A stretch of DNA of 64,000 nucleotides from Prorocentrum cordatum (lineage: Eukaryota): NCBI GenBank assembly GCA_963575745.1, contig CAUYUJ010000001.1, positions 1,054,001 to 1,118,000 on the forward strand, in the 5' to 3' direction. Within the stretch, counting starts at the first letter, position 1; every line of letters begins with the position of its first letter. Below, piece after piece: positions 8,367 through 53,128 of the stretch. The notes beneath the pieces were generated by a model that ran no database searches, was not told where the DNA came from, and saw only the letters and a list, made by a program, of their open reading frames with translations. The translations under genes were made by a program, and so were the position numbers.

Positions 8367-8384
8367 GTGCCCGGCTGTCCCGGC

Positions 8385-12609: not shown

Positions 12610-13004
12610 CTCACTAGGCGGGCGCGGCGCATCCCCAGATTCCAGACGAGAGGATTTGTAGCACATCCTTCTAGATTCGTTCTCAGTCCCGTTCTCGGTC
12701 CTTGGGGCCGCGATCTGACCCCAAGGCCGTCAAGAACGGATCCGCGCGAAAATTGCCCCTTGGAAAAGGGTCGGGCCCTACCTGAGGCCGCGCACAGACA
12801 TAACCACATCGTCGCATGACTGGGTCCTGGGCAGAGCGGCCCCGTGAAGGGATCGAGGGCCCTGGGGGCCCACGCCACAAAAAAGGTGTGGCCCAGAGGG
12901 GGTCGTTGCTCATCCCTGCTCTGCCTCCGCTCCCTCCTCCTCCTCCGCCTCCTCATCATTATTATCATCATCATCCTCATCAGCAGCAGCATTATCCTCG
13001 TCAT

Positions 13005-15732: not shown

Positions 15733-15935
15733 GGGGCAACGTCAGGGGGGGACATTCTCGGGGGGGTGGGGGGGCGCATCGGCCCCCGATCGCCCACTGA
15801 TCTCAGATAGGGACCTGATATCCCACCCCCATTTTCGCTCTCGGGGGTGAATCGCCGACCTATCGTCAATATAGCGCCGATTTCAGATCGGTTTCCCCCG
15901 CCCCCCCCCTACAAGTCCCCTCCTCTCGTTGCCGC
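15733..15935. mobile_element. TCA-flanked MITE (~200 bp)
   Basis: tca|ggggcaacg ... cgttgccgc|tca. Confidence 0.75.
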
Positions 15936-16327
15936 TCAAGGAGGGAGAGTGGAGGCTCGAGGAAGGAAGAAAGAAGGAGTGGGGAGGAGGAGGAGGAGGA
16001 GGAGGAGGAGGAGGAGGAGGAGGAGGAGGAGGAGGAGGAGGAGGAGTGTGGGAGGATTGATGAGGAAGGAGGTCGGTCCTGCACAGCCTCAATGTGGTCA
16101 GCCCCGGCAGGAGAGAGGGAGGAGGTCTGGGCAGGAGGATCGAGGAGGGGGGCGGAGGAGCTGGAGGCCGAGGGAGGACAGGGAACCATGAGGAGGGACG
16201 GGGGGAGGGAGAAGGAGGATGGGAGGGAGGAAGCAGGGAGCGAGGGCGGGAGAGAGGAGGATCCGGGCGGACGGGGCGAGCATCGAGGTTGCCGCCGGAA
16301 GCCGTTTTTTTGTGCGCGCGGCGCGAG

Positions 16328-22105: not shown

Positions 22106-25100
22106 CAGTAGCAGTGGCAGTTGTAGTAGGAGTAGTACTCACAGTAGTAATAGTAGCTGTAGCCGCCGTATTAGTAGTAACACAAGTAGTCGTAGTAGTG
22201 GTCGTGGTCGCGGTAGTAGTAACAGTAGCGCTTCTATGTTTAAATATCCAGTGATCCGTAACACGGTGAGTCTCTGTCGTAGGAAGGGTGGTTATGGTGA
22301 TAGTAGCAAAGTTAGCAGCGGCATCAGGAGTAGCAGTATCAGCAGCTGTTGTAGACGAAGTAATGGTGGTAGTAGTTAGGGCGGGTGGTAGACTTAGTAG
22401 CAGTAGTGGCTCCCGTACATGTAGCAGCAGTGATGGTAGTATAGGCTTAATGAGCGGTGTCAATAGCAGTAACAGCAGCAGCCACAGTATGTAACATACA
22501 AATGAATTTCGAGAGTTTGTGAATGCATGTTCATGTGTCTATTCATATGTGCACGCACGCACCGTATATACAATATCCTGACATACAAAGGCATAGCACG
22601 CATACAGCTTAACCCCATATCACAGCATAGCGCAGCCTGGCACCTTGCACTGCAGTGTATGCCATCGGGAATAGCAATGCATAGCATCGCATAGCATTAT
22701 TTTGCAAAGCACGTTGTAGCATTCTACTGTATGGCGTACGCTTCATCGCACTGCAGGGTATATCATAGCTTTCCCAATACCCTTTCCCCCCCTGTTCCAT
22801 CCCCCTGTGAGCTGCTGCATGTTGATTCCTCTTGGGGGCCCATGAGGGCTCCCTCTTGGGGCCCACTGAGGGCTGCTCCGTGGCATGTTTCGAGCTCTTT
22901 GGGGGGGCTGTTCGGGACTATCTTGGAGGCCTCTCGATGCCTTCCAGTGCCAGCAGATGTTTCCTACCATGTCGCTCGCGTGGCCTGATTGTGATTCCTT
23001 TGGGGCCCTATGAAGCCCTCTTGGGGCCCTGTTGGGACCACTCTTGAGCAGTCCTGGGGCGCCCCTTCGAAGGCTCATCACCATCTTCAGCATCATCATC
23101 TATTCGTTTCGCCCCTCCCTCCTCATGATCCCCCTCATCCATCATTCCTCCTCCTCCTCCTCCTCCTCCTCCTCTTCATCATCATCCTCCTGTTCCCCCT
23201 CTTCCTCCCCCTCCCCCTCCTCCTCCTCCTTCTCCTCCTTCTCCCCGTCGTCATCGTTGTCGTCCTCCTCATCCTTTTCCTCCCCTCCGCCCAGTGCGTA
23301 GGAAAAAAAACGAATCTCCGACACAAGCCGCATTCATCGTTTCTCTGATCAGACCCCCTCGCGTCGTGAATCACGACCGGCAGGTCCCCGCTCTTTCAGC
23401 GTTTGTGCCATTTGGGGGCCCTTAGTGGGCCCAAGGACTGTCAAAGAACGACGCAGAATGAAAAAAGCCAGTCCCAGGGAACAGGTCCAGACTCCCAGAA
23501 GGGTAGATGACCACCACCACCAAGATCGGGTAAATGCGTGATGCGTTTTGGCGCATTTTGGCTCTTGTGGCCAACCGCTGTCGCGGCCCCGCCGCCAACG
23601 ACGACCGCCCCCACCTCGCGCCCAGGTGCCGAAACGAGGCTCATCAAAACAAACGCGGTGGTGCCTATGGTTGTGGCTTCACATGGACCAGATTCTCACA
23701 TCACCACCAAGATCTGCGGTTTTTGTGCTGGGAGCTCCTGGCGCCCGTGCGCCGCGCTGCGCTCCTGTTCGCCGCGGGGGGCATGTCGTCGTCTGGCACG
23801 GCCCTGGCTCCGATAATTGCTGCGCCCATGTTTTGCAGGCGGCGGTGGTGCACATACATTGACCGCGCGCAGACCCTCGGGGTTGAAACAAATCATGACG
23901 CCGAGGGTCTGGGTCGCAGGGCCTCTGGAGCCAGGACCCTGCAGGCCAGGCTTCGAGAGCTCGAGGCAGAGAGAGCGGGGGGTCGTTGACGTCTCGACCC
24001 ACGGCTGCAGCGCTCCTGGTCGTGCCAGGGCCCCGGCTCACCAACATCCCCAGTCCCCGGGGTCCTGGAGCAGCACTGGGCGTCTCTCGTGCCCCTGGCA
24101 GTGATCGCGAGCGGCAGGCGGGTGCCCCCTCGTCGCGCCTCGCTGGGGCCCTCGTGGACTGGCCTGGCCCGGAAGAGGCCCGCACAAGCAGAGGCGGTGT
24201 CGAGACCGCCCGTGACTACGGTTGCCAACGATGCTGCAATTTGCCCTCACGACGTCCGATTTCGGAGGTGAGACGTGGCGATGGAGGTGGACAGTATTGC
24301 TTGTGTTGCAAATCGTTCCACCCTCCGCGGGGGGAAGCAGCGGTGAACAGCCCGTCTGGAGAAAAGGCGATCGGGAATCAGGGACCCAGCCCGCCCTTGC
24401 CGATAGGAGAGAGGGGGAGGAAAGGAGGGGGGCAACTGCTCCAAGCCGCCGAGCGGCTCACAGTCGCGCAGCTCATACCTCTGCACGACCCAGTACTGGA
24501 TGACAGAGTCGTGATGCTGTCCATTGTGCTGCGGTTTCGCTTTGCTCCGCAGTCGTCCGAACGGAGGTGGGCAGGAAACAGGAAAGCTCATGGGGAATCA
24601 CCGACTGGGAGTTACGGGCCGCACGGCTCCACACGCTTGAAGACGAGCATGCGTTCTCCATCCTCGCTGGGCCCTATCAATCCCTCGCGGAGTAGCCTGG
24701 TCCGAAAGAACGGCCCACGCGAGAAGAAATGGTTTCGAGAGCTCCGGCCGCGACTGCACTGTTGCCGTCGACGTTGCGACCTGTCCTCACGACGCGCTGT
24801 GCTCGAGGCGAGGCGTAGCGATGGGACTGGATACCCAGCAGGCCGATGGAGCGCCCACCTTGCCGAGCCGACCAGCCAGCAAGTTGCCCCTTGCCGATTC
24901 TCGAGAGGGCGCTGCGGCTGTGATGTCTGCAGGCCTGCGTCCGCCGGGTCCGGCCCCGGGTCGTTTCTTGTGGCGGGTGTGCTGCTGAAGCGCAGTCTGT
25001 CCACCCCCGAGATACGCTTGGGAACGTTTGCTTCGCGTGTCGCTCCGCCGTTTCTGGCCCACCACGCCTCGACGCGACATGGTAACCCCGTTCCGGTCCC

Positions 25101-25536
25101 CAGGCATCAAACGTCCCGAGCCTGTCCCAGCCGTCCGCCTCCGGCACGCCATCCGCTTGCAGACCATAGCGTGTTGCCAGGGTTGCCGCAGCGACATGCC
25201 AAGCAAAAGCTCCCGACCGAAAGAAATAAGAAAGCCTTGTGGGAATAGATCCTTGGGAGCTTGCCGGCCTCACGTTCTCACACGTTGAAGAACGAGCAGC
25301 TCCGCAGATGGTCCCCAGAGGCCCAAAGCTTCCTGGTGACCACCACTTGCTCGCCCAACCTCCCTTGCCCTCCAGAAAAGGGCCGGCCGCGCTCGCACGG
25401 GCAACACAATGCAGTGCACGTGCCTCGTTGTGCTCGCTTGTCCGTGCATCACGCGTGTGGGATAGCCTCCCCGAGGGGCAGCGGGTTTCTCGATCTGCAC
25501 TCCCCTGGCTCCCTCGCGGGTGAGAAAGACAAGCAG

Positions 25537-25716
25537 GAGGCCGGGCTCGGCGCGGGGGTCCGCGCGGCCGTGCTGTCCGCGTTCCCTGCGGCCTACCTGG
25601 CCGGCCTGGCGCCCGCAGGGCGGGCGTGCGACGACCCCGCGCTGCCGCCGCGCGTACTGTCCGCTGGCGCGCTGGGGGTGTCCCTGGGCTGCGCGCTCTT
25701 CTCGGCCACGCGCAAG
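25537..25716 (+). CDS. MFS transporter exon 2 (TM2-TM3)
   Basis: EAGLGAGVRAAVLSAFPAAYLAGLAPAGRACD..: motif A-like GRxxD; AG|G acceptor, GT donor (3' end uncertain). Confidence 0.75.
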
Positions 25717-26059
25717 GTGGACCCTTCGCCAGAGTGACCTGCGGAGCGGGCGCACTGTGGCCCCCAAACGACGGAACGCGATGCGATAGCAGCGTCTCGC
25801 GCGCTCGGGATTGGCCTCCCCGCGGTCCCCGAAAGTCGCGCACCGAAGGTCGCTCCCCTGAGATCCGACGTCGCGCGACAATTGAAACATGGTCTACAAT
25901 GACGACCCGAGCCCCAGACCCCATCTGTCTGCGCCCTTTGTCGAGCCGGATCGATCTCCGAGGGCCCCGAGGCCGGAAGCCGGGCGAAGACGCCCGTTGC
26001 GCAGGAAGTGGCAGCGCCAGGATCTCAGGGCCTCAGCCCGGGGCCGCTCCTGCGTGTAG

Positions 26060-26218
26060 CCGATCTTCGGGTTGTGCGGCGCGCCCTGGGCGCTGGCGGC
26101 CGCGCGCGCCTTGCAGGGCCTCTCCGCGGCGCTGGCGGACGTGGCGGCCGGCGCGCTGGTGGCGGCCGGCGCGGGCGAGAGGCTCGCGTACATGGAGGGG
26201 GTCCTGGAGTCCTGCGAG
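26060..26218 (+). CDS. MFS transporter exon 3 (TM4-TM5 start)
   Basis: ALAAARALQGLSAA (motif B, R-x-x-QG) ... MEGVLESCE; frame absent from the ORF track; 5' end uncertain; GC donor. Confidence 0.75.
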
Positions 26219-26241
26219 GCTCGTGGGCGAAAGACATCTCT

Positions 26242-26390
26242 TTAAGTCGGGCATGTCCCTCTGCAGGAGAACGATTCAAAAATAGTCTGGGGATTATTTT
26301 TTGTAGCATCTATGACTATTTTTGATTACTGCTTGACAATTTTTAATTTTTCGCCCAAAATCCGCCTGTAGGGGAACATGCCCGACCTAA
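26242..26390. mobile_element. hAT-like MITE with AT-rich core
   Basis: TIR ttaagtcgggcatgtcc / gaacatgcccgacctaa; degenerate 8-bp flanks acatctct/acctatct. Confidence 0.75.
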
Positions 26391-27304
26391 ACCTATCTCG
26401 GCGGCCTGGGGGGAAGCAGAGGCAGCGGACATTCTCGGAAGGCTCGGAAGTCCCCGGGCCGTCCGAAAATTCTTCTAAGCCTTCCCCGAATACACAGAGA
26501 TTGTCAGGATGCGCGAGGGTTTCTGAGAAGTCCCGCCGCCTTCGGAGAAGGCCTTCTCCTTCTCACTTCCCCCCTCGCTCGCCGCCGCTCGTGGGCGAAA
26601 GACATATCCGTGCACACGGCCTCGCAGGCCTGGCCCAGGAGCCGTGACCCCGCGGATAGGGGGCGCTCTTTTGTCGCGGAGCCCCCGCGCGCAGCGTATC
26701 CGTGCATCCGCGCATCACCAGGGTCGCGGTCCAGGAGGAGGACGAGGAGGAGGAGGACGAGGATGAGGAGGACGAGGAGCAGGAGGAGGACGAGGAGGAG
26801 GAGGAAGACGAGGAGGAGGACGAGGAGGCGGCGCAGGAGGAGGAGGAGGAGGAGGTCGAGGAAGAGGAGGAGGAGAAGGAGGAAGAGGGCGAGGAGGAAG
26901 AGGAGGAGGAGGAGGAGGAGGAGGAGGAGAAGGAAGAGGAGGAGGCGAGTTCGCCGCTCGTGAGATGCGGGGCCGCGCGCCGGTGTAGCCCTTCGCGGAG
27001 GCGGCCTCTGCTCTCAGACCCCCCCATCACGTCGCGAAGAATTCGCGACGGGAGGAAGATTTTCCCCAAGACAATCAGCCCGCCTGATTGAGCTGCACAC
27101 GAGGCGCCTCAGCGAGTGATTGCACTTAGGGGGTTTTATTTCTCGACAAAGAAACTGGGCCTGGTTGTCGGTCTGGCCGGCTTGTGGCCGCCCGTCGCGC
27201 CGTCCTTGGTCACGATTTTGATTGTGCGAGGGCATGGTCGTCGGTCCTGCCGGCTTGTGGCCGCCCGTGGCCGCCGTCTTCGGTCACGGTGTTTTGTTTG
27301 TGCG

Positions 27305-27690
27305 AGGTTCACGCTTTGCATTGCTTTGCATTCCTTTGCACTGCGTTGCGTTGGTTTGCATAGCTGCGCGTTGTCTTCATCGCTTTGCATTGATCTGCGT
27401 TGTTTTGCATTGCGTTGATCTGCATTGCGTTGCTTTGGCTTGCTTTGCGTTGCATTGCGTTGCATTGCATTGCCTTGCACTGCGTTGAATTGTTCTGCGT
27501 TGCTTCGCACTGGATTGCAATCGCATTACACTGCATTGATTTGCTTTACATTGATGTGCATTGATTTGCATAGCTGTGCGTTGCTTTGCACTGCTTCGCA
27601 TTGCTTTGCACCACATAGATTGCACCACATGAACTGCGCCACCTAGATTGCACCACATTGATTGTACCACCTAGACTGCGCCGCATAATT
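27305..27690. repeat. (TTGCA/TTGCG)n pentamer repeat grading into a 15-bp tagattgcaccacat unit
   Basis: Direct reading. Confidence 0.9.
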
Positions 27691-27845
27691 TGTAAGAAAT
27701 CACTGCTCGGGGTCCACGCTGCCGAACCTTTTGTATTTTCGGTTCCCCTGGGCCCTTGCCCAGCCTCGGGACAGTCACAAAACCTTTTCAGGATGAAAAA
27801 CCGGTCGCCGAGAAGGGGTCAAGACCTCTAGGGGTCCATGTCTCA

Positions 27846-28021
27846 GGGCCAACGATAGGGGGGGGGGATAGGCATAGGTGGATATGCATCGACCCCGAAT
27901 CGCCCTTCGATCGCCGACAGGGGTCTGATAGCCCCACCCTGCCCAGGAAGGTGCGGTTTCGCCATCGGGGGCCTATCGCCGTTCTATCTGCGAGGTATCG
28001 CCGATTCCAGATCGTGGCCCC
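27846..28021. mobile_element. TCA-flanked MITE
   Basis: tca|gggccaacgatagg ... atcgtggcccc|tca. Confidence 0.75.
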
Positions 28022-28196
28022 TCAATGTCGAGACACAGTGACGACATCGGGAGTCTGGGGTGCGCGGCTTTCGGGGGGCGCGCGGGGGGGGGGGGGGGCA
28101 GAACCAGGCACGCACGGCTGCTGCGGCGAATCGCACCGCCTCCCCGCCCCCATCTTCCACTGCGGGGGTGCTGCGCGCCTCCCCTCTCCGGGAGAG

Positions 28197-28350
28197 GCAC
28201 TGGGCTGGATCCTCGGGCCGCCCGTGGGCGCCCTGCTCTACGCCCGCGCCGGCTTCCCGGCCACCTCCGCGCTGTGGGCGCTGCTGTGCGCCGCGGTGGT
28301 GCCCGCGACCGCCCTCGCCGCGGGCGCTGGCGCGGCGCGCCCGGGGGGAG
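28197..28350 (+). CDS. MFS transporter exon 4 (TM5-TM6)
   Basis: ALGWILGPPVGALLYARAGF (motif C; SLC18/DHA1-like); AG|G acceptor in phase with ..ESCE; 3' end approximate. Confidence 0.8.
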
Positions 28351-30512
28351 CGTCCCCGCCGCACTCGGGGCAGCGCAAACCGCACGTCGTGAGCTGACGA
28401 CCACAGCAACCCCCACCTGCGCGACCTCCAGACGTCTCGGGGTGCATCTCCGGGGGGGGGGGCTATGGGGAGCGTGTTGCTGGAAGGGGGCCCCTGTTCG
28501 AACGGTGGCCTTCCTCGGGGTCCGACAACCCGCACCCATACCTTGAGCGCAGCCCCAATTCGCGAGACGCGGGTCAGCTCCCTATAAGTAGAAGGGTGCG
28601 GAGTCCGCTCGTCGGCACGAGGTTCGGCATCTCACCCCGCCTATTGTCTCGGTCGGAGGAAGGTGTTTTGACGTTCTCGGACGTTTTTCGTCGGCTCCCG
28701 GATGCTGGATGCTGTTTAGCGGCTGCGCCTCGTCGGAAGCGTCAGAGGCCTGCACTATGGCCAAAACACGACTGGGGCCTCAGATGTCCTACGATTTGGT
28801 CGTTTCCAACCCTGTATGTTTTAAGGTTTCGGCTTTTGTTGACCGTTTACGGGCCCTGTGGCAATCAAAACTGATTCCAGGTCTGGAGGAGGGCCTGTCG
28901 AGACAACGGCGGTTCTCCCTTACGCTTTTGGCGTTTTCGTGGGCCTCCCCGAGGCTTCTCGTCGCCACGGTTGCATCCTCTTCGAGTACAGGGATATCCG
29001 ACGGTATAATTTGTCCGATCCTAGCATTGTATCAAAATTTCGGCCTCGGGGTCCGTTTTTGGGCCCCGGGGCAATCAGAAATTGATCCGGGACAGAATTC
29101 TGGGCCTGGGGGAGGGGGAGAGACTTTTGGAGCCGCGCATTGAAAACTCAGATCGTCGGATATATGGGCTCTTGCCTAAGTCGGAAGAGGGCTGGTCGAG
29201 ATAGCGGCGGCCTTCCTTTGCGCGTGTCGTGCTGCTCTCAAGCCTCCTGAAAGCTTCTCGTCGCCGCGGCTGCATCCGCTTCGAGCAACGGGTCAGGATG
29301 GACCCCAGGATGGGGGGATCAAGTTTGAGCGCACTGGGGGGCCGGGAAACGTGCCCCCACGGCCGAAATCGTGCCACAACGCCTGGGCTGCAACAAAAGT
29401 CATGCCGTCGGAAATTTGTCGGCCACGCGCAGAGGGGGGTCGGGAAGGGGAGAAGGCTTCTGAGAAGCAGCCCTGCTTCTTAGAAGGCGCGGGCCTTAGC
29501 TATAGATTACAGTCGAGGATCTGATAAAGAAACCTTACCCGAAAAGCTGGGTCAGCGTTTCTTAGCCAATTTGCCAGAAAGCTGGCCCAGATTCTTGATC
29601 ACGTTCGCCCCCGCCAGCGGTAACAACAGATGTTGGTCCAGATTTGTTCCCAACCATCTTGTGGTGTTGGGTCCTCGTTTTGAAAAGCAGTCCCCGCGTC
29701 CACTCTCCTCCTCCTCCTCCTCCTCCTCCTCCTCCTCCTCCTCCTCCTCCTCCTCCTCCTCCTCCTCCTCTCTCCTCCTCCTCCTCCTCCTCCTCCTTCT
29801 CCTCCTTCTCCTCCTCCTCCTGCTCGCTCTCCCCTCGGGTCGCCTGCGGCCCCGGGGGAAGCCGTCCATTCCAGAGGCCGAGCTCGAGGCAAAACGCCCA
29901 AGTAAAAGAAGCGAGCCGTCGCAGATCAGCCACGCGCAGATGGGGGTGTAGGATGAGGGGGGAGGTTTGCTTAGAAGCACCCCTGCTTCTTAGAAGGCGC
30001 GGGCAGTGTCTGTAGATGTAGGGCCGGCGCCTTCTGAGAAGCAGCTTCCTTCTAAGAAGCATTCCCCCCGCCCACTATTTCCTTGCGCGCGCCGCCAAGC
30101 AGAGCTGGGCGTCTCGCGTTCCACGCGGTTTGGTGGCTGCCCTGGCGCCCGGCTGTGGCGAGCTCGCAGGCGCGCTGCTGGAGGAGTCGAGGGCGGCCAA
30201 GCGACACGCTGTCCACGTCCCCATCCCCAAGCGTCAACGTCCCGAGCTTTTCTCAGCCTCCCACCCCGCGGAGCGGAGCGACACGCTGCCAGCTTGCAAG
30301 GCACAGCGAGTCGCCAGGGCCGCCGCCGCGACACGCTGCCCAAAAGTTCCTCACAATACGGGGGGGGGCATCACGGCCAGGGCCATGAGATCTTCCCAGA
30401 TCTCATGGCCCATCCGCTTTTTCCGATGCGTCCGCTGGCCCCTTCCCCCTGGGCCGCGCACGTGCCTCGGGCCACGATTTGCGAACCCCCTCTTGAGCGG
30501 CCCCCCTCTTAG

Positions 30513-30590
30513 GGCGCCCCCGAAGGAGAGGGACGAGGAGGCGGAGGAGAAGATGCCGTCCAGCCAGCAGAGCCTTGCCGACCTCGGGGC
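30513..30590 (+). CDS. Possible MFS central-loop exon (APPKERDEEAEEKMPSSQQSLADL)
   Basis: Hydrophilic segment between the TM6 and TM7 exons, TTAG|G acceptor; phases not resolved. Confidence 0.35.
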
Positions 30591-31466
30591 CGCGCCGACA
30601 GGGGGGGAGGCGGGCGGGCGGGGAGCATGCCCACACCGGCCCCTGACTTCGGGTCCGCCGTGCTGTATGGTCGACTCGTCTACTTACCAGTGCGTCCGAA
30701 ATGCACCCAGAACGATGCAAAAAAGCAGGGCGGACATCTCTGCTTCAGAACAGAGCAGGGGCGGGGGGTTATCCTCCAGCAAAAGTACGGAGGAAACAGC
30801 GATGGCCAAGTACGGCGGAAATCAAATCGGCACCAAAGGAGCTTGGAACAGTGGGACGGAAATCTCCGCCCTACCAGCGATATCGCCTAAAGCACGGCGG
30901 ATCCGAAGTCAGGGTCCGCCTCGCGGCCTGGGCTCCAGCGGCCGTAACCCCACGGGCACCCAGACCTCCGACGAGAGGAGTTTTGTCCATCGGGGCGTGT
31001 TTGGTAGATGTGGCCCCTGAGGCCCATTTTCCGGCCCCGGGGCCAGCAGTTCTGGATCTGGGGCGAGAAGTTGGCCCCAGGGAAGGGCCTGGGACCTCCC
31101 TGGGGCTGCGCATTGCACGAAGGCAAATCGTCGGACGCCTGGGGACACAGGGCGGCTTTGTGTGGATGCCCCGCGCGATCGTGCAGTTGCCCATGGGGCC
31201 CTGCCTCGGTGTCCCCGGACCCCGACGTCGTGATGGAGTCATGGCGCAGACCCCCGCGGGTCTGGCCCCCTTCCGCGGGAGCGCTTCTTCCGCCTGAGCC
31301 GTCCTTTGACGGCCCCGAGGGCCCGGGGAGGGCACCCTTCAGGCCCTCAAAGCGGGGAGAGCAGCACCACCCGCCGTGCCCTTTTTGTTGCCTCACGGCG
31401 CGAGGGGTGCCCCCCAAGGGGGGGGGGAGGCCCCGGGCCTGGCCGTGGCCTCCACCGTCCTGGGAG

Positions 31467-31675
31467 GCGGCGGGGCTCGCGGCCAGCGGCGCGCACGTCT
31501 TCGCCTACGGCCTCGGCAGCGGGGCCATGTACGCGGGGCTGGCGCTGCGGGGCCGGGCGCTGGGCCTGGGCGCGGGCGCCACGGCGCTGCTGCAGCTGCT
31601 CGTGGCCGCGAGCTACCTCGTGGGGGCGCCGCTGGTGGGCAGGGGCTGCGACGGCTGCTCGCCGCGCGGCCAGTG
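31467..31675 (+). CDS. MFS transporter exon (TM7-TM8)
   Basis: ..VFAYGLGSGAMYAGL..LLVAASYLVGAPLVGRGCD: second motif A copy; GA donor, phase 2. Confidence 0.8.
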
Positions 31676-31844
31676 GAGCTCAGGGGAGGAGAAGCCTGGG
31701 ATCCTGGCGTCCCCCGCTCGCCGCAACGGGCGGTGTCGCATCGCGTCTGGGCCCCACGACGGCTGGATTCTCCTCGAAGTTCTGGTCATGCATCCCGGGG
31801 GAGGTCCGGGAAGCAGCGGCATCGGTACCCTTTTGCCCCCCCAG

Positions 31845-31902
31845 GCGCATCACGGCGGCTGGCTGGGGCGTCCTGATCGTGGCGTTCGCTGGCCTGTCCG
31901 AG
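31845..31902 (+). CDS. MFS transporter exon (TM9: RITAAGWGVLIVAFAGLSE)
   Basis: Phases match both neighbours; CAG|G acceptor, GA donor. Confidence 0.7.
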
Positions 31903-32146
31903 GAGTTCGGGGAAGCGAGCACGGCAGAAGCCTGCGCTTTCTCAGGTCCGCGCGGGTTCCTCGGAGGGGCGCCGCCAGGGGGACCTCCAGCGCCGCTCCA
32001 AGAAGTCCACGCGGACCTGCGGAAGCTTACACGCGTGCGTCGTTCTCTCGTCTTCGAGGCACGCCGATCCAGCGCTGCCGCCGATCCGAGAAATCCGCGC
32101 GGGCCTCCAAAAGCTTATGCTTGTGTCATTTGTTGTTCCTCCGTAG

Positions 32147-32206
32147 GCGTCGCGGGGAGGGCCGCCACTGGTGGCCGCCTCGCTGCTTCTCCTGGGCGCG
32201 GGGGAG
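32147..32206 (+). CDS. MFS transporter exon (TM10 start: ASRGGPPLVAASLLLLGAGE)
   Basis: TAG|G acceptor after a pyrimidine tract; GC donor. Confidence 0.7.
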
Positions 32207-32211
32207 GCTCA

Positions 32212-32432
32212 GCGGCAACGTCAGGGGGGGAATGGGCTCATGTGGGGATGCATCGACCCAGTATCGGCCCCCAATCGCCCAGTCATCGCCGATGGGGCCC
32301 CGATAGCACACCCACCCAAGAACGTGGAAAATGACGCCATCGGGGGCGCATCGCCGATCTATTGGCGATGTATCGCCGATTTCAGCGCGATGTTTCACCC
32401 CCCGTGCGCCCACCCTCTCCTGGTGTTCCCCC
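32212..32432. mobile_element. TCA-family MITE filling almost the whole intron 32207-32438
   Basis: tca|gcggcaacgtcagg ... tgttccccc; family core present. Confidence 0.7.
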
Positions 32433-32438
32433 TCGGAG

Positions 32439-32486
32439 GCGTGCGTGCTGGTCCCGTCCTACCCCCTGCTCACGGCTGCTGCGCCG
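32439..32486 (+). CDS. MFS transporter exon (ACVLVPSYPLLTAAAP)
   Basis: In-frame continuation of TM10; AG|G acceptor, GC donor. Confidence 0.65.
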
Positions 32487-32654
32487 GCCCGTCCCTGGCC
32501 GCGCGCAGCGGGGGTCTCCCGGATCTCCGACGATGCTGTTTTCGTTCGCTCTTGGCATGGCTCCTTGATTTCGGCTTCGGGGCCCGTTCCAACGGCTCCG
32601 GGGCGACAGGCTGGCAGCGGGGGAGGGGTCGGGGCCTGTGGGGCCACGCCTAAC

Positions 32655-32706
32655 AAAACACACTCTCACACACACACACACACACTCTCACACACACACA
32701 CACACT

Positions 32707-32768
<62 letters not shown>

Positions 32769-32787
32769 CACACACACACACACACTC

Positions 32788-32822
<35 letters not shown>

Positions 32823-32824
32823 CA
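32655..32824. repeat. (CA)n microsatellite
   Basis: Direct reading. Confidence 0.95.
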
Positions 32825-32844
32825 TCGTCGGGTGTTTGGGGGAG

Positions 32845-32859
32845 GCGCGCTGGGCGAGG
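32845..32859 (+). CDS. Possible MFS micro-exon (ALGEG), part of TM11
   Basis: Joins in phase to the last exon to give ALGEGLGP; rest of TM11 unresolved. Confidence 0.4.
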
Positions 32860-33815
32860 GCTGTCCGAGACGGCAGGCGGGGGATTCTCCGAGGCCCTCC
32901 CGCCTTCCAGGCGGCTTCCTCGGGGGCCTCCCGATCACCTCGGAGAAGGCCCCTGCCGTCTTCGAGAGCCCCCCCCGACTTCTCCCGCGTGCGCGCCGCC
33001 AACCCCAGAGATCCAGCGGCGCGATTGTGTCGGCCAGCTTTTCATCCCGAGCTATTTTTGGCGGTTCCCGGGCCCGAGACCTTGGTTCAGATGTTCTGAA
33101 TGCAGAGAAATTGCCGCCCCGAGTTTTTCGAACTGCGGGATCTCTGGGACCGTCCCGGCCTCGTCTCCGCCGTCTTCAACGGCACCTGGGCGATAGGCCA
33201 AGGCTCGCGGGCGTCCAACAGGGGGGTAAGGACTATGATGCGCTAGCCCTCTTCGTCCTGTCCTTCCTTTTCTGGGGTCGGACGAGAGGGGGGATGGGGA
33301 AAGGAGGGGTTACGAATCCTGCTACATGCTGCTGCTTTCCTCGATAACTAGCTTAGCGCCTCCGGCGCGGCGAGGCGCCAGGGAAATCGGCCACGTGAGT
33401 TGATTCGCAAACCACGCTTTACTACCCCACCTCTTCCGCCTGATCCAAGTGGTTCGAGAGTCGATGGATCGAGGATCGTGGTTTCTTGAAGTGTTTCATT
33501 ATTTGGGGGGCGCCTGTGGAGGGGAATTCTCGCCACCGCGGCCTGATTCCCTTTCAAGTTCCTGATCAGAGCGCACCCCAGGGGCCAATGTTCGACCCGA
33601 TCTTTGGCGCACCCTACATAAGGGGTCCAAGCAGGTTGGGTCGGAGGATCGCGCCGCATCGCCGATGCATCAGCGATGCGGCCCGATGTTGGACCCGAGT
33701 TTCTCGACGCCGACATCGCCGATACGTCGATGCATCGGCAATGCGGCGCGCTCCTCCGGCCCCGCCTGCTCGGACCTGGCCTTGCACCCCCACCGATCTT
33801 CGGCGCACCCGAGAG

Positions 33816-33931
33816 GCCTGGGGCCGTTCGCGCTCGCGGCGCTGCGCTGGGACGCCGCCATGGCGGCCGCGGCGGCCGCGGCCGCGCTCCTGCTGGCTGC
33901 GGCTGCGGCGCAGTCTGCGTCGGCGCGCTAG
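33816..33931 (+). CDS. MFS transporter terminal exon (LGPFALAALRWDAAM...SAR*)
   Basis: End of TM11 plus hydrophobic TM12 and TAG stop; AG|G acceptor. Confidence 0.7.
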
Positions 33932-34251
33932 CGCCCCGGTCGTGTGCAGGTGCCCCCTGGCCGAGCGGCAGCACGAGGGCCCCACAGAGTGCCCGACCGG
34001 CGTCCTCTCTCCTGCTCCGGGGGAACAGCGCTAGCGAGGGGGGGGGGGTAGGCTCTTGGGGAGGCACTGTGCTCGGAGTTCTGGCCTTCTCGTGGGTCCC
34101 CATGGGTTTTTCCGCCTCGGGATGCTCCCCAGCAGCTGCGCCTCGCCGCGAGGCGTCCCCGGGTGCCCAGATCGTCCCAGCGGGCCGCCAGCGACCCGAG
34201 CTATCACCCGAAACCCAGCCAGCGAGGATCACTGGCTCGGGGGGGCATGCG

Positions 34252-34410
34252 TTAAGTCGGGCCTGTCCCTCTACAGGAGGAATATTCAAAAGTAGGCAAA
34301 ACATGGTCTGGGGATAATGTTTTAGCATGTTCTGAATATGTTTGAACATTTCCTGTGTATTTGTCATTTTTCATCCAACATCCCCCTATAGGGGGACATG
34401 CCCGACCTAA
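34252..34410. mobile_element. hAT-like MITE with perfect 8-bp TSD, nested in a TCA-family element (~34020-34545)
   Basis: ggcatgcg|ttaagtcggg ... cccgacctaa|ggcatgcg. Confidence 0.85.
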
Positions 34411-34954
34411 GGCATGCGTCGACCCCAAACAGCACATTCGTCGCCGATGGGAGCCTGTCAGCCAGACCCGCCCAGGAGTGTGCAGTTTCGCTGCCTGGGG
34501 CCCACCGCCGACTTCTCGGCGATGTGTCGCCGACTCCGTCCTCCCTCTCCTTCTCCGCCTCCTGGCCCCCTCTCCCCATCCTCCCTCCCCCGTCCCCCAG
34601 TCCTCCCTCACTTCGGCGGCGCGCAGAGCGGGGGTGGGGCCAGGGGGGGCGGCCCTCTGCGAAGAACGCTGGGGGGGGGGGGCCTCTCGGAGGCGCCCGA
34701 TCCCTTCTGAGGAGCCCCCCTGCCTTCTTGGAAGGCCGCCCCCGTCAATCCCCCCCCGTCCTACACGGTGTGCGAGGGTGGAGGGGGAAGGGGGGGCGGC
34801 GGGATCCCGATTCGCCGATCCACTGTCGAGTTTTCGATCTGATGGAGGGCTGGCCTGACCACCCCAACGCTGCGTGCCGCCAACTCCCTTCAACCAGGGG
34901 ATCCCTCGCTTTGTCCGCTCGGGCCCGCCCCGTGCGCGCAGACCCGGCGGGGAG

Positions 34955-35041
34955 GCCCACCTGGAGCGCTTCGTTCGCGCCAAGTACGAGCAGAAGCTGT
35001 TCGCCCGGGGCGACCTCAGAGACCCGCCAGCCAACCCGGAG
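34955..35041 (+). CDS. ArfGAP-PDZ exon 6 (AHLERFVRAKYEQKLFARGDLRDPPANPE)
   Basis: ArfGAP C-terminal F-x-R-A-K-Y motif; AG|G acceptor, GC donor. Confidence 0.85.
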
Positions 35042-35629
35042 GCCGCAACGCCGCGGCCCACGTCGCCTTTCAGGGACCTTCGCTGGGGGGGAGGGATCGG
35101 ATTTTTGGACGTTTTCGTCGGTTCTCGGCGCTTGGCGAGCCTCGGGACGCTCTCCGGCACCTGCGCTTCGCCGAGGGCGTCTGGGAGGTGCTCGGATCGT
35201 CCCGAAAGCCGCCAGAGAGGCGAGTTATGAACCGAAAACCAAGGAGGAACGTCGGAAGGGAATGGGCTCAGCGGGGGGAACGCATCGATACCCAATCGCC
35301 CATTCATCGCCGACAGGGGGCCGACGGCCCGGCCCCGCCCAGGGACATGCGGTTTCGCCATCGACGGCAAATCATGTCGGCCATGTGTCGCCGATAGCAG
35401 GTCGATCTCTCCTCCCCTGAGCCAGTCCCTCCCGGCGTATCGTTTCCCCTCAGGTTCTGGCAGCGCGCATCAGGCGGTGGGGAGGGGGGCGCAGCCTTCA
35501 GAGAGGGCAGCGGGCTCCCGAGGAGGCTCCGAAGCCCCTCCTCGGGGGGCCTCCTCGATACAAGATTGAGGTCAGATGAGATTTTATGTAGAAACAGTTT
35601 GCGCGGGTTTGCCCATGTTCTTTGCTTTG

Positions 35630-38200
35630 TTCGTGTGTATACGTGCGTATGTCTGTGTGTACGCGTATGTGTACGTGTCTACGTGTCTACGTGTGTGTGT
35701 GTGTGTGCTTCTACGCCCCGTCGCCGCACGCGGAGCCGCGACGCCAAAATGTGTGTGTGTGTAAGTGCAAGGTGCGTGTCAGTGTAAGGCGTTTGCAAGT
35801 GCAAGTGCAAATGTAAGAGACCGTGTAAGTGTAAGTGTGCGTGTAAGTGGAGAGTGAGTGCGAGTGTGAGTGCAAGTGTAAGTGTAAGTGTGTGCGTGTG
35901 TGTGAGTGAGTGTGTGTGCGTGTGTATGTGCGTGTGTGTACGTGTGTGCGCGTATGTGTGCGTGTGTGTGTGTGTGCGTGTGTGTCTGCGTGTGTGTGCA
36001 TGCGTGTGTTTGTGCGCGTGTGTGTGCGCGTGTGTGTGCGTGTGTGTGTGTGTGCGTGTGTGCGCGTGTGTGTGTGCGTGTGTGTGTGTGCGTGTGTGTA
36101 CGTGTGTGTACGCGTTTGTGTACGTGTGGGTAGTGTGTGCGCACGTGTGTGTAAGTCTGTGCGTACGTGTGTGCCTGTGCCTGTGCGTGTGCGGTTGGGT
36201 GTGCGTGTGCGTGTGCGTGTGTGCGTGTGTGGTTGTGTTTGTGGTTGTGTGTGTGTTTATATGTGTGCTTGCGTTTGTGTGTGATTGTGTCGGTGTGTAT
36301 GTTTGTGTGTGCTTGTGCTTGTGCGTGTGCTTGTGCTTGTGCTTGTGCTTGGGTGTGCGTGTGCTTGTGCGTATGCTTGTGCCTGTGCTTGTGCTTGTGC
36401 TTGTGTTGTTGTTTGTGTGTTTGTGATTGTGTGTTTGTGTCTGTGTCCGTGTCTGTGTCTGTGTCTGTGTCTGTGTCTGTATGGTGTGTGTTGTGTGGTG
36501 CGTGTAGTGTGATTTGTATTGTGTGGTGTGGGTTGCGTGTTGCGTGTTGCGTGTTGCGTGAGTGTTGCGTATTGCGTGTTGTGTGGTGTGTGTGTTGCGT
36601 GTTGTGTGGTGTATGTTGCGTGTTGTGTGGTACGCGTTGTGTGTTGTGTCGTGTGTTGTGTGTGTTGTGTTGTGTGTGCTGTGTAGGGTGTAGGGTGTAG
36701 GGTGTCTGTTGGGTGTAGGATGTGTGGTGTGTTGTGTGTGTGCCGTGTGCTGTGTGTTGCGTGTTGTGTGTGTTGTGGGATGTGGGTTGTGTGTTGTGTG
36801 TTGTGTTCTGTGTTGTGTGGTGTGTGTTGTGTGGTGTGTTGTGTGCTGTGTGTGTTGTGGGTTGCGTGTTGTGGGTTGTGGGTTGCGGGTTGTGGGTTGC
36901 GGGTTGTGTCGTTGTGGGTTGTGTGGTTGTGGGTTGTGGGTTCTGGGTTGTGGGTTGTGGGTTCTGTGTTGAGTGTTGTGTGGTGTGTGTTGTGTGGTGT
37001 GTGGTGTGTGGTGTGTGTTGTGTGTTGTGTGTTGTGCGGTGTGTGTTGTGGGTTGTGGGTTGTGTGTTGTGGGTTGTGTGGTGTATGGTGTGAGTTTTTT
37101 GTTTGGTGTGTGGTGACTGGTGTGTGTGTGTGTTGTGTGGTGTGTGCTGTGCGGTGTGTGGTGTGTGGTGTGTGATGTGTGTGTCGTGTGGTGTGGGTGG
37201 TGTGAGTTGTGTGTTGTGTGTGTGTTGTGTGTTGTGTGTTGTGTGCTGTGCGTTGTGTGGTGTGCGGTGTGTGGTGTATGGTGTGTATGTGTGCGCGTGC
37301 GTGCGTGCATGTGTGTGCCTGCGTGTGTGCATGTGTGTGAGCGTTGTTGTGTGTGTGTGTGTGTTTGTGTGTGTGTTTGTCTGTTTTTGTGTGTCTGTTT
37401 GTCTGGTTGTGTGGTTGTGTGATTGTGGGTCTGTGTGTGTGTTTGTGTGGTTGTGTAGTTGTGTGGTTGTGTGTTTGTGTGGTTGGGTGATTGTGTGGTT
37501 GTGGGTTTGTGTGTTGTGTGGTTGTGTGTTTGTGTGGTTGTGCGTTTGTGTGGTTGTGTGCGTGTGTGCATTGGTGGATCGGTGGGGGGGTGGAGGGGTG
37601 GGGGGGGAGATGTTGGGGTATGGGTGTATTGGGGTGCGGGTGGTGCCGGGTGTGGGTGTGGGGTGTGGGGGTGTGGGGGTGTTGGGGTGTGGGTGGAGCC
37701 AGGGTGTGGGGGGTGTGGGGGAGGTGGGGGGGGGGTGGGGGGTGGGGGCTGTGGCGGCTGTGACGGCTGTGGCGCTGTGGCGGCTGCGGCGGCTGTGACG
37801 GCTGTGGGGGTGTGGGGGTGTAGAGGGGGTGTGGGGGTGTGGGGGTGTGGGGGTGTGGGGGGAGTGTGGGGGTGTGGGGGCGTGGGGGTGTGGGGGGGTG
37901 CGTGTATAAGTGTGAGAGTGTGTGTGTGTATGAGAGTATGTGCTGTGAGGATATGTGCTGTGTGTGTTCGTGCGTGTGTGTGTGTGTGTGTGTGTCTGTA
38001 TGTGGTGTGTATGTGTGCGCGTGTGTGTGCTTCGTGCGTTTTGTGCGGTGTGTGTGTATGTGTGTGATGTGATGTGTGTGTGTTGCGTGTTGTGTGTTGT
38101 GTGTTGTGTGTTGTGTGTTTGTCATGTGTGTCTGTGTGTTGCGTGTTGTGTGTATGTGTGTTGTAGATTGCGTGCTCTGTATTGTGCGTATTGTGTTGCA
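35630..38200. repeat. 2.5-kb modular TG-rich tract
   Basis: Blocks of (TG)n, (GTGCTT)n, (GTTGT)n, (GGGTTGT)n and (GGGGGTGT)n. Confidence 0.95.
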
Positions 38201-42463: not shown

Positions 42464-44074
42464 GCGGGCCGTGCGCAGAGGAGGTGGGCGGGCGGGTGGA
42501 GCGCGAGGCGGTGGCCCTCCGCCAGGAGGCAGGAGCGCAGGAGCCCCAAGGGGGCCTCTCGGAGGCCAACCCCACCCCGGCAGCTTGAGGAGCCCTCTGC
42601 CTCATGAGGTGACAACTGGGACCAGGACCTGTGCGATCGCCAGATTTCTCGGGGCTGAGTTTCGTGGGGGGGGCTACGGGCGCGCGAGGTGGGACGAGGG
42701 TCCCCGATCGATGGGGAGCCCCCCCTAGGGGGTCCGACAACTCGGACCCACACCTGCAGCGCCTTCATCGCCTTGGCGTTCCCCATTCCTTCCTCTTGGC
42801 ATCGCTCGGACGTAACACGCACGAAACCCAACAATGCACTGGGAGTGGACGTCCGATTGATGGCAAGTCCTCCTCCATATAAGTTTTGTGTGTGAGTGTC
42901 TGTGCTTGTGCTTGTGTTTGTGTTTGTGTATGTGTTGATGTGTGTGTTTGTGTGTGTGTGCTTGTGTTTGTGTGCGTGGTTGCGAGTTTGTATGTTTGTG
43001 TGTGTGTTTGTGATTTTGTGTTTGTGTGTGTTGTTTGTTGGGTGTTTTTTTGTATGTTTCTGTGTGTTGCTCTTTCTTCACCTTCGGTCCGAGACCGCCC
43101 TGGCCCAGGGGAAAGCCCAGGAACCGGCGTATACCCTGGTCCAGGTTTTAGTTGTTGTGCGACTTCTCACTCCATGACAGCCTTGCCGGACGGCCATCTG
43201 ACGCTTGCGTGTATTCCCTTTTGCCTCTTCCTTGTCAGACAAGTTGCGCTGGCAAAGAATTTCAGGGAAGCTTCAGAGACGGCCTCCTGAGCATCCCGTG
43301 AGTGAAGCCCCACAGGGCCCCGACGGGGGCTCCGAGGTGCATCAGAGATGAGTTGGGGGGGGGGGCACTTTGGGTCCAGGAGCACCTCTGGTGGCCTCCG
43401 GTTTTCGAGGCCTCCGATCCCCTCCGAGAAAGCCCCACCCCCTGCCTTGAAGGCCCCCCCCTCGCTTTACAGCTGGCACGATGGTCAGGAGCGTTTGCTT
43501 AGCGTGCCGCGCCGCCAATTCTGGCCTACTGTGGGACCGAAGTGTAAGATCGAGGTCGGCTCGGGGAGGTTACCCTGATGTTCTTCGTGTCTCTTGGCTG
43601 TGCTTGTGCCTCCTGGGAGACAGCCCCCTCGAGTGTTCTTCGGTGTGGCCAGCGGAGGGCCTCATGTCCTTGCAGGATGCGATTCTGTCTTGGGTCTGGC
43701 CGCACCACGCCTCGGCGCGACACGCCAACCGCGTCCCAGTTTCCCAGTCATCAGCGTGCCGAGCTGTCCTCGGCCTCCCGCCCCACCAGAGCAGGAGAGA
43801 GGCACACCACCGGTTGCGAGGCACCGCGTGCCGCAGGGACCGCCGCCGCGACACGCGAAGCCACAAATCCCGACCGCAAGAGCGACCCCAGCTGTGGACG
43901 GCTTCCCCTCGCCTCCTTCGCGTACGCGTGTCGGGCTCTCCACGCGCTCTCCCTCCCTCCCCCCCGCCCCGCGCCCCGCGGCCGCCTCGCCTCTCTTTAC
44001 CTCTTGCCGCCGGTTCACTCGCGCTTTCCGTTGCCCGGACCGCTCGAGCGCGCGTGCGGATTGCCTCTGCCTCG

Positions 44075-44282
44075 GGGGCAACGATAGGAGGGGATAGGCA
44101 TCGGGGGGGACGCATCGACCCCCAATCGCCCATTGATCGCCGATAGGGGCCCGATAGCCCCAGCCTGCCCAGGAAGGTGCGGATTCACTATCGGAGGGAC
44201 CTCTCCGATCTACGGGCGATGTATCGCCGATTCTAGGTCGATGCATCCCCCCCTACGCCAGTCCCCCCCTTATCGTTGCCCC
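44075..44282. mobile_element. TCA-family MITE
   Basis: ggggcaacgatag ... tatcgttgcccc|tca. Confidence 0.8.
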
Positions 44283-44881
44283 TCACTGCCGCGCTGCGAC
44301 GCAAACATTGGGCCCTCCACCTGAAGAGATCCCTGTTCGCTTTGCGGTACCTCCGCGGGGCCTCGCGCCGTCGGCGAGCGGGCTGGTGCTCTTGGGCCCA
44401 CGGTCCTGTGGCCGCGCTTCGGCCGCACCGCCCTTTGGGATGCAACTCCTGGGAGGCTCACTGCAGCACCGGCGCTGCTAATTATGCCCATGGCTGCGGG
44501 CTGGCGCCATCCGCCACTGCCCCGTGTGACGCTGTTCTCTCCAGCTGAGGTTCGGTGCACTCCCCCGGCCGGATCCGGCCTGATCTGGCTGAATGGCCCC
44601 CTGAATCGGGTTCAGTGGCCCTCAGAGTCAACCCGCATAGTAAGGACAAGCGGCTTTCCAAGGTTGCCCTTGCATCTTTCCCCTTCGGCCCGTCCTTGGC
44701 CGGTTTCGCTGGCCACGCCCCGCTCGCAAAGTGTTGGCATGGCCGTCCAAGGTCCTTGCATCCTCATCGTGCGTCCTCATGAGACGGGTTGGCTGTAATC
44801 GGGGTCAGTCGCCCTCAATCGTTTCTTCGAAGACCTCCCAGGAGCTGGCTCCCATCCCCTCCCCGAGCGCCGCCCTTGCAG

Positions 44882-44945: not shown

Positions 44946-46169
44946 GACGCTTCCCTGCCGTGCGGCCCTGGGAGGCTCCGGCGAGACCTCCTCCCAGAGC
45001 TCATGTCGACTCCTCCGACGCGATTCGCTTGAATTCCGATCGATTCCGATTCGATTCGACTTCAGATTCCGATTTGGATTTGGATTTCGGTTTCTCCATG
45101 GAGGCCTTACTAGCCTGGTGATTTCCGCCGATTCAATGTGTCCCGATTTGGCTGCCGCTTTCCGCCGATGCGATTCACTTCGATCGCCGATCCGACTTGT
45201 CGATTCGATTCCGGGCTCTCCTGCCCCCTCGCAGGCGACTTCTCGCCCCCAGTCCCCGAGTTCCTCCCCAAAGATCAGGCCGCTCAGAGGAGAAAAGAAG
45301 CTCAGGGATGCCCAGAGGAGGGGAAAAGGTACGGGTACCGCCGCGCCACCCTCTTGGCCACGCCTGCATTCGCGGCGACATCCTGCCCAGAACGCACCCC
45401 GGGAGAGGTCCAGAGAGCAACGGGATCGGCATCTTCTGCCCTCCCTCCGGACGCGCCCCTGGGGGGCTGCTCGGGCGTACCAGTTTCGAGGATTGACGCC
45501 TCCCCATCGTGCATCCACGAGGTCGGCACACTCGTTTGTTCAGCCGAAGCTCCCGCACAGCATCGGGGGCTGGGGTCGCCAGGCTCCCCGTCGTCCTTCC
45601 CCTCGCGGGCTCGCTACCACAACGGGCCTGGGGAGCCCGAGGTCCACAGAGCAAGCGAGCACAGCACCCCGGCCCCCACACAGGCAGGCAGAGGGAGAAG
45701 AGGGAGGATAGAAAGAGAGAGAGAGAGAGAGAGAACGAGAGAGAGAGAGAGATGTCTGGGTCGGGAGTTGGCCCAGCCCTTACCCACCTTTACCCCTCTC
45801 CCCTCCCAGAGCCAGGGAAGGCAGCCCTCCCAACTGCAGCCGCTGGTAGCCGCACGCTGCGCAGTGGAAAGCTTGCTTGTTCTTCAGCAGGCACTGCTGA
45901 CCCATCGTTTGCTGCCTTTCTCGGCGGCGCGCCCGGAGGGGAAGCGAGAAGGAGCGGGCCGTCTGAGAAGGTGGCGGGGCTTCTCAGAAGCCGATGGCGC
46001 CTTCTGAGAAGTCCCACCAGCCCTCTGGGCGACAGGTGGTCTAACGATATGTTTCTTTCTCCTGCCAAAAACCCCTTCTTCCCCTTCGGGGAGGGGCCTA
46101 CCCCTCCCACTACCCCCTCCCTTGGACCTGGAGGGGGGGGGGGTCGTGAAGTGCCAGAGGGCCCTTTTT

Positions 46170-53112: not shown

Positions 53113-53128
53113 CTTAGCTGCCCTCATG

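Follow-up and report, generated by a model that had tools for sequence, protein, structure and literature searches.

Three consecutive introns of one gene of the dinoflagellate Prorocentrum cordatum are each filled, almost to the nucleotide, by a single repeat element. The gene lies on the plus strand, encodes an MFS-like transporter and is contained in a 64,000-nucleotide (nt) stretch of DNA, here called the window (assembly GCA_963575745.1, contig CAUYUJ010000001.1, positions 1,054,001 to 1,118,000 of the forward strand; coordinates below count from the first letter of the window). From 5' to 3' the introns are intron A (31676-31844, 169 nt, GA..AG), the middle intron M (31903-32146, 244 nt, GA..AG) and intron B (32207-32438, 232 nt, GC..AG). 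Probably, three unrelated families of miniature inverted-repeat transposable elements (MITEs) each hit a coding exon of this gene and are now excised as complete spliceosomal introns.

Splicing of three introns in an MFS-like gene

Four public sequencing runs (X1, X15, X17 and X20, from studies P1, P6 and P7) were mapped onto positions 31300-32640 of the window. In every run a single contig of 298-452 nt crosses all three joints, a result that recurs in 4 of 4 runs and 3 studies. The contigs cover 31462-31674, 31844-31900, 32145-32202 and 32435-32495 or beyond, and they skip 169, 244 and 232 nt, with 2, 3 and 6 ambiguous letters at the respective joints. The exon pieces match the window without a mismatch in X1, X15 and X20 and with one in X17 (31562 G>C). 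The raw joint of intron A is 31674>31844, and a shift by 1 letter converts it to GA..AG at 31676-31844; the raw joint of intron B is 32202>32435 in all four runs, and a shift by 4 letters gives GC..AG at 32207-32438; the raw joint of intron M is 31900>32145, again in all four runs. For each joint, the coordinates given above are the sole placement with an initial G and a final AG. Introns A and B had been proposed in an initial annotation made from the letters of the window, and the contigs confirm both to the base. That annotation took 31845-32206 as a single exon, within which the contigs reveal intron M as a third intron, and the GGAGGC repeat it had pointed out at both junctions of intron B corresponds to the six ambiguous letters at that joint.

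Depth is 0 in all four runs in the bins 31300-31434, 31705-31749 and 32245-32334, the last two of which are intron-interior. The bin 31750-31794 has depth 0 in three of the four runs and 0.19 in X1. A run search with a 9-kb stretch as query listed 20 runs, and each shares no more than 0.06-0.12 of its words. Exon-only cover, three simultaneous skips of GA..AG or GC..AG segments and a small share of words fit transcript assemblies.

The contigs join four exons of the plus strand. The first, 31467-31675, is matched by contig pieces from 31462 to 31674/5 and by residues 87-155 of the Symbiodinium homologue P0001 (57.5% identity by tblastn), and its 69 codons have a third-position G+C content (GC3) of 1.0. 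Intron M is flanked by exons of just 58 and 60 nt: the exon 31845-31902 (GC3 0.89) is covered by contig pieces 31844-31900 with no other letter in the four runs, and the exon 32147-32206 (GC3 0.85) by pieces 32145-32202, with residues 192-212 of P0001 matching 32147-32209. The next exon (GC3 0.75) is covered by contigs at least over 32439-32612 (pieces 32435-32568 and 32464-32612), and residues 211-230 of P0001 match 32436-32495 at 65% identity. One reading frame runs through the spliced exons; at the joint of intron A the frame moves by +1 and the high GC3 is maintained. The GC3 of the three introns is 0.53-0.75 in any frame. When aligned to P0001, the spliced translation scores 282, whereas the unspliced read-through reaches 195. 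No gap interrupts the alignment at junction B, the window reading ...GAGE/ACVLVPSYP (a slash marks the splice point) and the homologue ...GLGEAFVLLPSYP, and the tblastn pieces of P0001 meet at this junction.

The G+C content of the window is 0.43-0.69 per 2-kb bin, mainly 0.6-0.65; trinucleotide arrays are numerous, and exons are recognisable by their very high third-position G+C. An exhaustive HMMER search of 1.84 billion proteins with an 81-residue exon of the gene returned three proteins at E <= 0.001, the two best being from Symbiodinium microadriaticum (CAE7459635.1; E 4.9e-13, 65% identity) and Symbiodinium sp. Y106 (E 1.9e-12, 62%). The S. microadriaticum homologue matches Pfam MFS_1 at E 3.9e-6; this is under the curated cut-off, so 'MFS-like' is a fair label for the predicted product. 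Pfam searches with the raw open reading frames of the region returned no family for any of six queries, and a word-based protein search with a 77-residue exon and longer proteins found nothing at E <= 0.01 among 8000 scored candidates. The homologues revealed no second copy of the gene in the window by tblastn, and Rfam gave no match at E <= 0.1 over 24000-37000.

Almost all junctions of the gene read AG/GC or AG/GA on the donor side and AG/GC on the acceptor side, as seen at 26219/26220, 28196/28197, 31466/31467, 31902/31903, 32146/32147, 32206/32207 and 32438/32439. Short direct repeats across junctions are thus the rule in this gene, and no duplication is called here without evidence from the element.

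Repeat families that fill the introns

Family B, the occupant of intron B, was modelled from two seed copies, one of them the intron B copy. With nhmmer the model identifies eight loci in the window, all on the plus strand, and the six non-seed copies match at E values from 4e-35 to 1e-15. The intron B copy is 76-79% identical to six other family members (z 14-24). The element termini read TCAGGGGCAACG...CGTTGCCCCTCA; the inverted ends reach about 50 nt in the best copy, and copies fold end to end into hairpins (z -4.3, -6.3 and -7.1). Perfect 5-nt direct repeats adjoin the aligned termini in four of the eight copies: GAGGC at intron B, CTGCC on both sides of the copy at 44072-44285 (about 50-nt inverted ends, hairpin z -7.1, no splice junction), AGGAG on both sides of 15730-15938 (hairpin z -6.3) and ATGTC on both sides of 27843-28024, a copy whose model match extends to 28036, within the 1977-nt intron 26220-28196, whose limits follow from homology to P0001. 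Two of these four intact duplications, CTGCC and ATGTC, contain no AGG. Model match and termini alignment place further copies with decayed duplications at 35241-35452, 10784-10991 and 12408-12613, and a partial copy lies at 34389-34555 (E 1.3e-15).

A blind scan that required a 5-nt repeat together with inverted matches at 11 or more of 14 terminal letters had 9 hits in the window, versus 0-3 in 20 shuffles, and re-found three B or B-like elements. Terminal inverted repeats, a duplication of fixed 5-nt length and varying sequence, and multiple copies qualify family B as a bona fide MITE without an evident target consensus. The 5-nt duplication alone is insufficient for assignment to a superfamily. 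A degenerate core motif of family B, scanned against metagenomes, recovered 65 loci, none of which fits the two-copy seed model at E <= 1e-3, and we regard them as chance matches.

The element in intron B spans 227 nt (32209-32435; nhmmer model positions 1-228 on 32209-32434, E 1.3e-70 as a seed; hairpin z -4.33, with 0 of 200 shuffles as stable). It is bracketed by GAGGC at 32204-32208, which contains the donor G/GC, and GAGGC at 32436-32440, which contains the acceptor AG/GC; both pentamers are supported by the sequence, by the alignment of family termini and by the ambiguous letters at the joint. The intron consists of the end of the left pentamer, the element and the start of the right pentamer (2 + 227 + 3 = 232 nt), so subtraction of the element and one duplication leaves 0 nt. 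Both splice sites fall inside the two GAGGC copies. Cutting after GAG in each copy takes out the element together with one pentamer and restores the codons GGG GAG GCG exactly. The proposal that this intron is a TCA-family MITE thus stands, while the flanks of about 5 nt that were envisaged on each side shrink to 2 + 3 nt, 5 nt in total.

Of the 244 nt of intron M, nt 6 to 241 fold into a single hairpin (z -4.04, with 0 of 200 shuffles as stable), in which nt 6-10 pair with nt 237-241. Its arms, 31925-31971 and 32079-32125, are 47 nt long and 74% complementary, and one of them is internally duplicated. In each of the four runs, pieces of the arms (31986-32025 and 32079-32116) turn up again in further contigs, about 90% alike and set between unrelated flanks, and their summed depth reaches about 2800 in one bin. 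The inverted-repeat element that fills intron M (31908-32143, plus strand) therefore belongs to an abundant family. The junctions of intron M share AGG only.

Intron A is one of three full copies of a dispersed repeat, family A, which are 75-80% alike (z 7.8-13.2 in global alignments against 200 shuffles; 82% over 74 nt by blastn, E 2e-12); four partial matches share the core only. The copy in the intron occupies 31681-31844 and aligns with plus-strand copies at 53126-53298, just past a candidate donor or stop codon near 53113, and at 45308-45448, in agreement with the earlier suggestion that the element recurs at 45311 and 53129. The shared sequence opens at CAGGGGAGG, 5 nt past the GA donor, and closes in a C-rich run at the acceptor, where the intron copy ends in ...CCCCAG and the other two in ...CCCCTG or ...CCCTCC. 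The inverted ends are short and imperfect (about 9-30 nt). A single copy of a dispersed repeat makes up essentially all of intron A. The two other full copies carry AAG/GTAAGG (53131-53150) or AAG/GTACGG (45313-45335) inside the 5' inverted end; the intron A copy has lost this donor-like AAG/GTA motif, and the upstream GA is used instead.

Origin of the introns

In the mechanism that we propose, small non-autonomous inverted-repeat elements of three unrelated families would have inserted into a coding exon of an expressed gene. The family B element would have entered at GAGGC and created a 5-nt target-site duplication, two pentamers then bracketing the element, and the spliceosome would cut after GAG in both, using G/GC as donor and AG/GC as acceptor. 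In A and M, the splice sites would lie in flanking or terminal sequence by the element ends, with GA donors, and the long inverted ends of B and M would fold each intron into one hairpin and unite the splice sites.

As expected of introners, A, B and M each consist of one element copy that equals a whole intron and are spliced from transcripts in all four runs (the run type being guessed), and the splice sites of B lie inside its duplication. The splice sites of A and M lie 0-6 nt from the element ends and may come from the element or from its flank. As expected of MITEs, the elements are short (140-230 nt), non-coding and multi-copy, with eight B copies and three full A copies, and end-to-end folding is seen in the B copies, in a B-like element and in M (z -4.0 to -9.9). 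The elements of the three introns are mutually dissimilar (z about 0) and all three verified introns use GA or GC donors, which bears out two proposals of the initial annotation: that several unrelated repeat families found introns here, and that relaxed GC and GA donors are involved. Removal of the element leaves at most 5-6 nt in A, 8 nt in M and nothing in B. Because these remnants of 0-8 nt are too little for an earlier intron, the insertions themselves probably made the introns, at the moment of insertion. Folding into a hairpin may then assist splicing.

Several observations weigh against this account. That the runs are RNA is a guess (their types read 'RNA?' or '?'), and none is on record as RNA. 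The 1977-nt intron 26220-28196 also reads GAG/GC at both junctions, and because AG/GC is the general junction context of the gene, the GAGGC repeat of intron B is by itself weak evidence of a duplication; the case for intron B rests on the 5-nt duplications of its family elsewhere and on the length arithmetic. The blind scan did not list the intron B copy, whose terminal 14 nt match in inverted orientation at 8 of 14 letters by our own count. None of the three family A copies forms a significant hairpin (z +0.21 for intron A, +0.65 and +1.27 versus shuffles). A search of all alignment-column pairs in the three copies found no consistent duplication, the best candidates sharing at most 3 nt in all three, at boundaries inside the element. 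The status of family A as a MITE is weak, and both this label and the origin of its splice sites are interpretive. The window contains no second copy of M, and no further A or B copy in it is demonstrable as a whole intron. Finally, compared with the Symbiodinium homologue, the window is 4 residues short at junction A and 18 at junction M; because these gaps coincide with the junctions, exact restoration of the sequence at A and M may be doubtful. The 18-residue gap also raised the idea that the 5' part of intron M is former coding sequence. This was rejected: GC3 is high in about 18 of 26 codons (by eye), which is not above the overall G+C content, and the similarity to P0001 is weak.

Whether such elements are specialised for making introns is a separate question. 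It is possible, but doubtful, that A, B and M belong to a specialised class of introners, propagating chiefly in intron form and equipped with features under selection for splicing, instead of being ordinary MITEs turned into introns by the chance of where they land. In the window only one of eight B copies and one of three full A copies are demonstrable whole introns, the remainder sitting in larger introns or unassigned non-coding DNA. The CTGCC and ATGTC duplications, devoid of AGG, would be unspliceable at the duplication, and A, B and M arm sequences recur within other transcript contigs. Specialisation would nevertheless account for the orientation of all eight B copies and all A copies with plus-strand genes, for the C-rich 3' ends that precede the acceptor, for the AAG/GTA motif in the 5' end of two A copies and for the occurrence of three such introns in a row in one gene.

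We regard family B as an ordinary MITE, turned into an intron only where the target suits, because two of its four intact duplications lack AGG and seven of its eight copies are not demonstrable whole introns. Three unrelated elements as adjacent introns, together with B copies most of which are not introns themselves, point to accidental creation by generic MITEs, which would turn intronic only at AGG-containing sites. We tentatively raise the wider possibility that intron gain in this G+C-rich dinoflagellate is a by-product of ordinary MITE traffic, involving hairpin elements of at least three families and no specialised introners. A clean intron would then arise wherever the duplication or the flank offers AG followed by GA, GC or GT, since the spliceosome accepts GA and GC donors and inverted ends unite the sites. 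Exons would therefore absorb repeated hits, as with the three insertions within 760 nt that left exons of 58 and 60 nt. If true, long introns would grow from founders via nested insertions, and element orientation would be filtered by the direction of transcription.

Three further alternatives concern the insertions themselves. It is improbable that family A is intron or flanking sequence spread by segmental duplication or gene conversion rather than by transposition: its three full copies are separated by 8-22 kb and sit in unrelated surroundings, with flanks devoid of similarity, yet have short inverted ends in common, and further contigs of the runs contain part of the 3' end again. Copying of this kind would fit the missing duplication and hairpin, the presence of three full copies only and the partial matches that share just the core. 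It is very improbable that the elements entered short introns that already existed and created none. Insertion into existing introns does occur in the window, where the B copy at 27843-28024 and the MITEs at 8380 and 26244 occupy larger introns and the first two are themselves flanked by duplications, but the sequence left over at B (0 nt), A (at most 5-6 nt) and M (8 nt) is unspliceably short and the donor and acceptor of B fall within the duplication. Finally, we consider it hardly credible that the joined contigs are unspliced DNA of an allele, paralogue or retrocopy lacking the three segments: joint B would be imitated if a MITE were lost along with one copy of its duplication, and the runs are not recorded as RNA, but all three segments are missing from one contig simultaneously, the skipped pieces start with GA or GC and finish with AG, the upstream part of one contig falls outside the adjoining non-coding DNA, intron-interior bins and the bin at 31300-31434 have no depth in any run, and the runs contain only 6-12% of the words of the 9-kb stretch, as exon-only data would.

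The creation of introns by MITE insertion has precedents. Huff et al. reportedly described in 2016 introners of Micromonas and Aureococcus as DNA transposons that create introns upon insertion, and they are said to bring one splice site themselves and to take its partner from the duplication. Those families, as described, are high-copy and near-identical with canonical GT-AG introns, whereas the copies here are 75-80% alike. The closest likeness is to class 12 of Polarella glacialis, which, according to the preprint by Roy et al. (10.1101/2020.10.14.339549), is of the DNA-transposon type with a 5-nt duplication NAGGH that provides both the donor GH and the acceptor AG, mostly yielding GC donors; the same preprint takes GA donors as a mark of recently gained introns. 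With GAGGC and GC..AG, intron B follows the mode described for class 12 exactly. Class 12 elements are described as beginning with C, whereas family B begins with T (TCAG...), a comparison made by description; unlike in class 12 as reported, most copies here are not whole introns, half of the intact duplications lack AGG and the genome is much richer in G+C. Family B would thus work like class 12, and we do not file it as a member.

The introners of Symbiodinium have inverted ends and a 4-nt duplication that provides the 5' splice site (Gozashti et al. 2022, PMC9860276; Roy et al. preprint), one splice site coming from the element end and the other from the flank. Intron A may match this pattern, with its acceptor at the element end and its GA donor 5 nt upstream of the element, although no duplication is resolved. 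In Amoebophrya (Farhat et al. 2021, PMC7789003) and P. cordatum itself (Dougan et al. 2023, PMC10666404), introner elements were defined by pattern, namely direct repeats of 3-5 nt across the junctions plus inverted repeats by both ends; hairpins were proposed to join the exon ends (Farhat et al., PMC7789003). Introns B and M resemble these elements in their junction repeats and hairpin-forming ends, and the P. cordatum genome is described as rich in G+C with long introns (PMC10666404), as here. As described, these two studies are pattern searches without an analysis of families, copies or duplications. The Amoebophrya introners are described as having highly variable non-canonical boundaries, whereas those here are the usual dinoflagellate GA..AG or GC..AG. 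From the sources at hand, the mechanism is known from Polarella, Symbiodinium and Amoebophrya, and by pattern from P. cordatum, and the present introns are a clean example involving new families and not a new kind. These families may already figure in the 2023 journal version of Roy et al. or in the supplementary tables of these papers.

Intron B offers a fully resolved transposon-made intron, in which element, duplication, splice points and restored codons are readable and the splicing is confirmed by transcripts; the reports of such introns that we found for high-G+C dinoflagellate genomes use pattern searches only. Whether the elements are generic or dedicated introners bears on why dinoflagellates are intron-rich. 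There is also a consequence for annotation, as repeat-masking or gene finders that expect GT donors will miss exons of 58-60 nt like these.

Donor-proximal MITEs, large introns and other repeats

Complete MITEs also lie close to other donors. A B-like MITE with similar termini and the duplication CTGTC (8380-8524, plus strand) starts 13 nt past the GT donor 8367 of an ArfGap exon and has the strongest hairpin seen (z -9.9); this donor is supported by the Pfam match to ArfGap, which halts at the exon end (E 3.3e-8, window 8186-8530). An unrelated AT-rich MITE (26244-26391, plus strand, hairpin z -6.2) lies about 25 nt past the GC donor 26220, a donor supported by homology to P0001. The family A copy at 53126-53298 begins 11-18 nt past the candidate donor near 53113, which may be a donor or merely the stop codon at 53115. 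These positions agree with the earlier remark that MITE ends occur within about 25 nt of the donors at 8367, 26219 and about 53113. Given about 47 repeat copies in 64 kb, the chance that some repeat's 5' end falls 25 nt or less from any one donor is about 2%, and three cases among a few dozen unverified donors are suggestive at best. The donor-proximal MITEs are secondary insertions into existing intron sequence, because all three are complete and the first carries a 5-nt duplication of its own. The further claim of preferential insertion beside donors is thus unproven, with three cases chosen after the fact.

The 1977-nt intron 26220-28196 contains the B copy with its own ATGTC duplication and the AT-rich MITE. 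Dispersed and tandem repeats, as defined within the window, cover 50% of this intron and 36% of the intron 28341-30480, which is consistent with growth of large introns by insertion; no split founder element was seen in either. Repeat cover and the B copy with its own duplication lend only partial support to the idea of giant introns as stacks of later insertions, which remains unproven. A suspected decayed B terminus at the start of the 1977-nt intron (9 of 12 letters by eye) was set aside as chance, as matches with at most two mismatches number 13 versus 8.6 expected.

The dispersed repeats of the window are strongly co-oriented: among 47 copies in 17 families, 43 are in the majority orientation and 4 in the minority one, with family B at 8 of 8. 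This may reflect selection relative to transcription of the plus strand. The count can be inflated by composite elements or segmental copies, two families adjoining each other both at 10.4-10.9 kb and at 43.5-44.3 kb.

Two further segments interrupt coding sequence. At 30182-30528, a 342-nt in-frame gap with AGGAG on both sides, possibly a GA..AG intron, separates coding pieces that resemble (by eye) the ...PG.C..LLEEE... part of P0001. It holds a fragment, not a full copy, of a dispersed repeat with 3-5 copies; the candidate element 30187-30523 was rejected as a clean single copy, as only its nt 13-209 match the dispersed family and the other copies reach further left. At 25697-26068, a 362-nt segment with TCTTC on both sides and 11 of 14 inverted terminal letters exactly separates two coding pieces of this gene that are in frame and have high GC3. 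The frame is kept either by removal of the segment with one repeat copy or via internal AAG/GT...TAG sites, and the segment folds no better than shuffles (z -1.1).

The closest dispersed pair in the window is a 317-nt inverted repeat at 50619-50935 and 51832-52148, 90% identical, in a region of low G+C with trinucleotide arrays. The region 36001-38000 shows extreme strand asymmetry (GC skew 0.75, AT skew -0.84) and consists of degenerate tandem repeats of the GT/GGT type.

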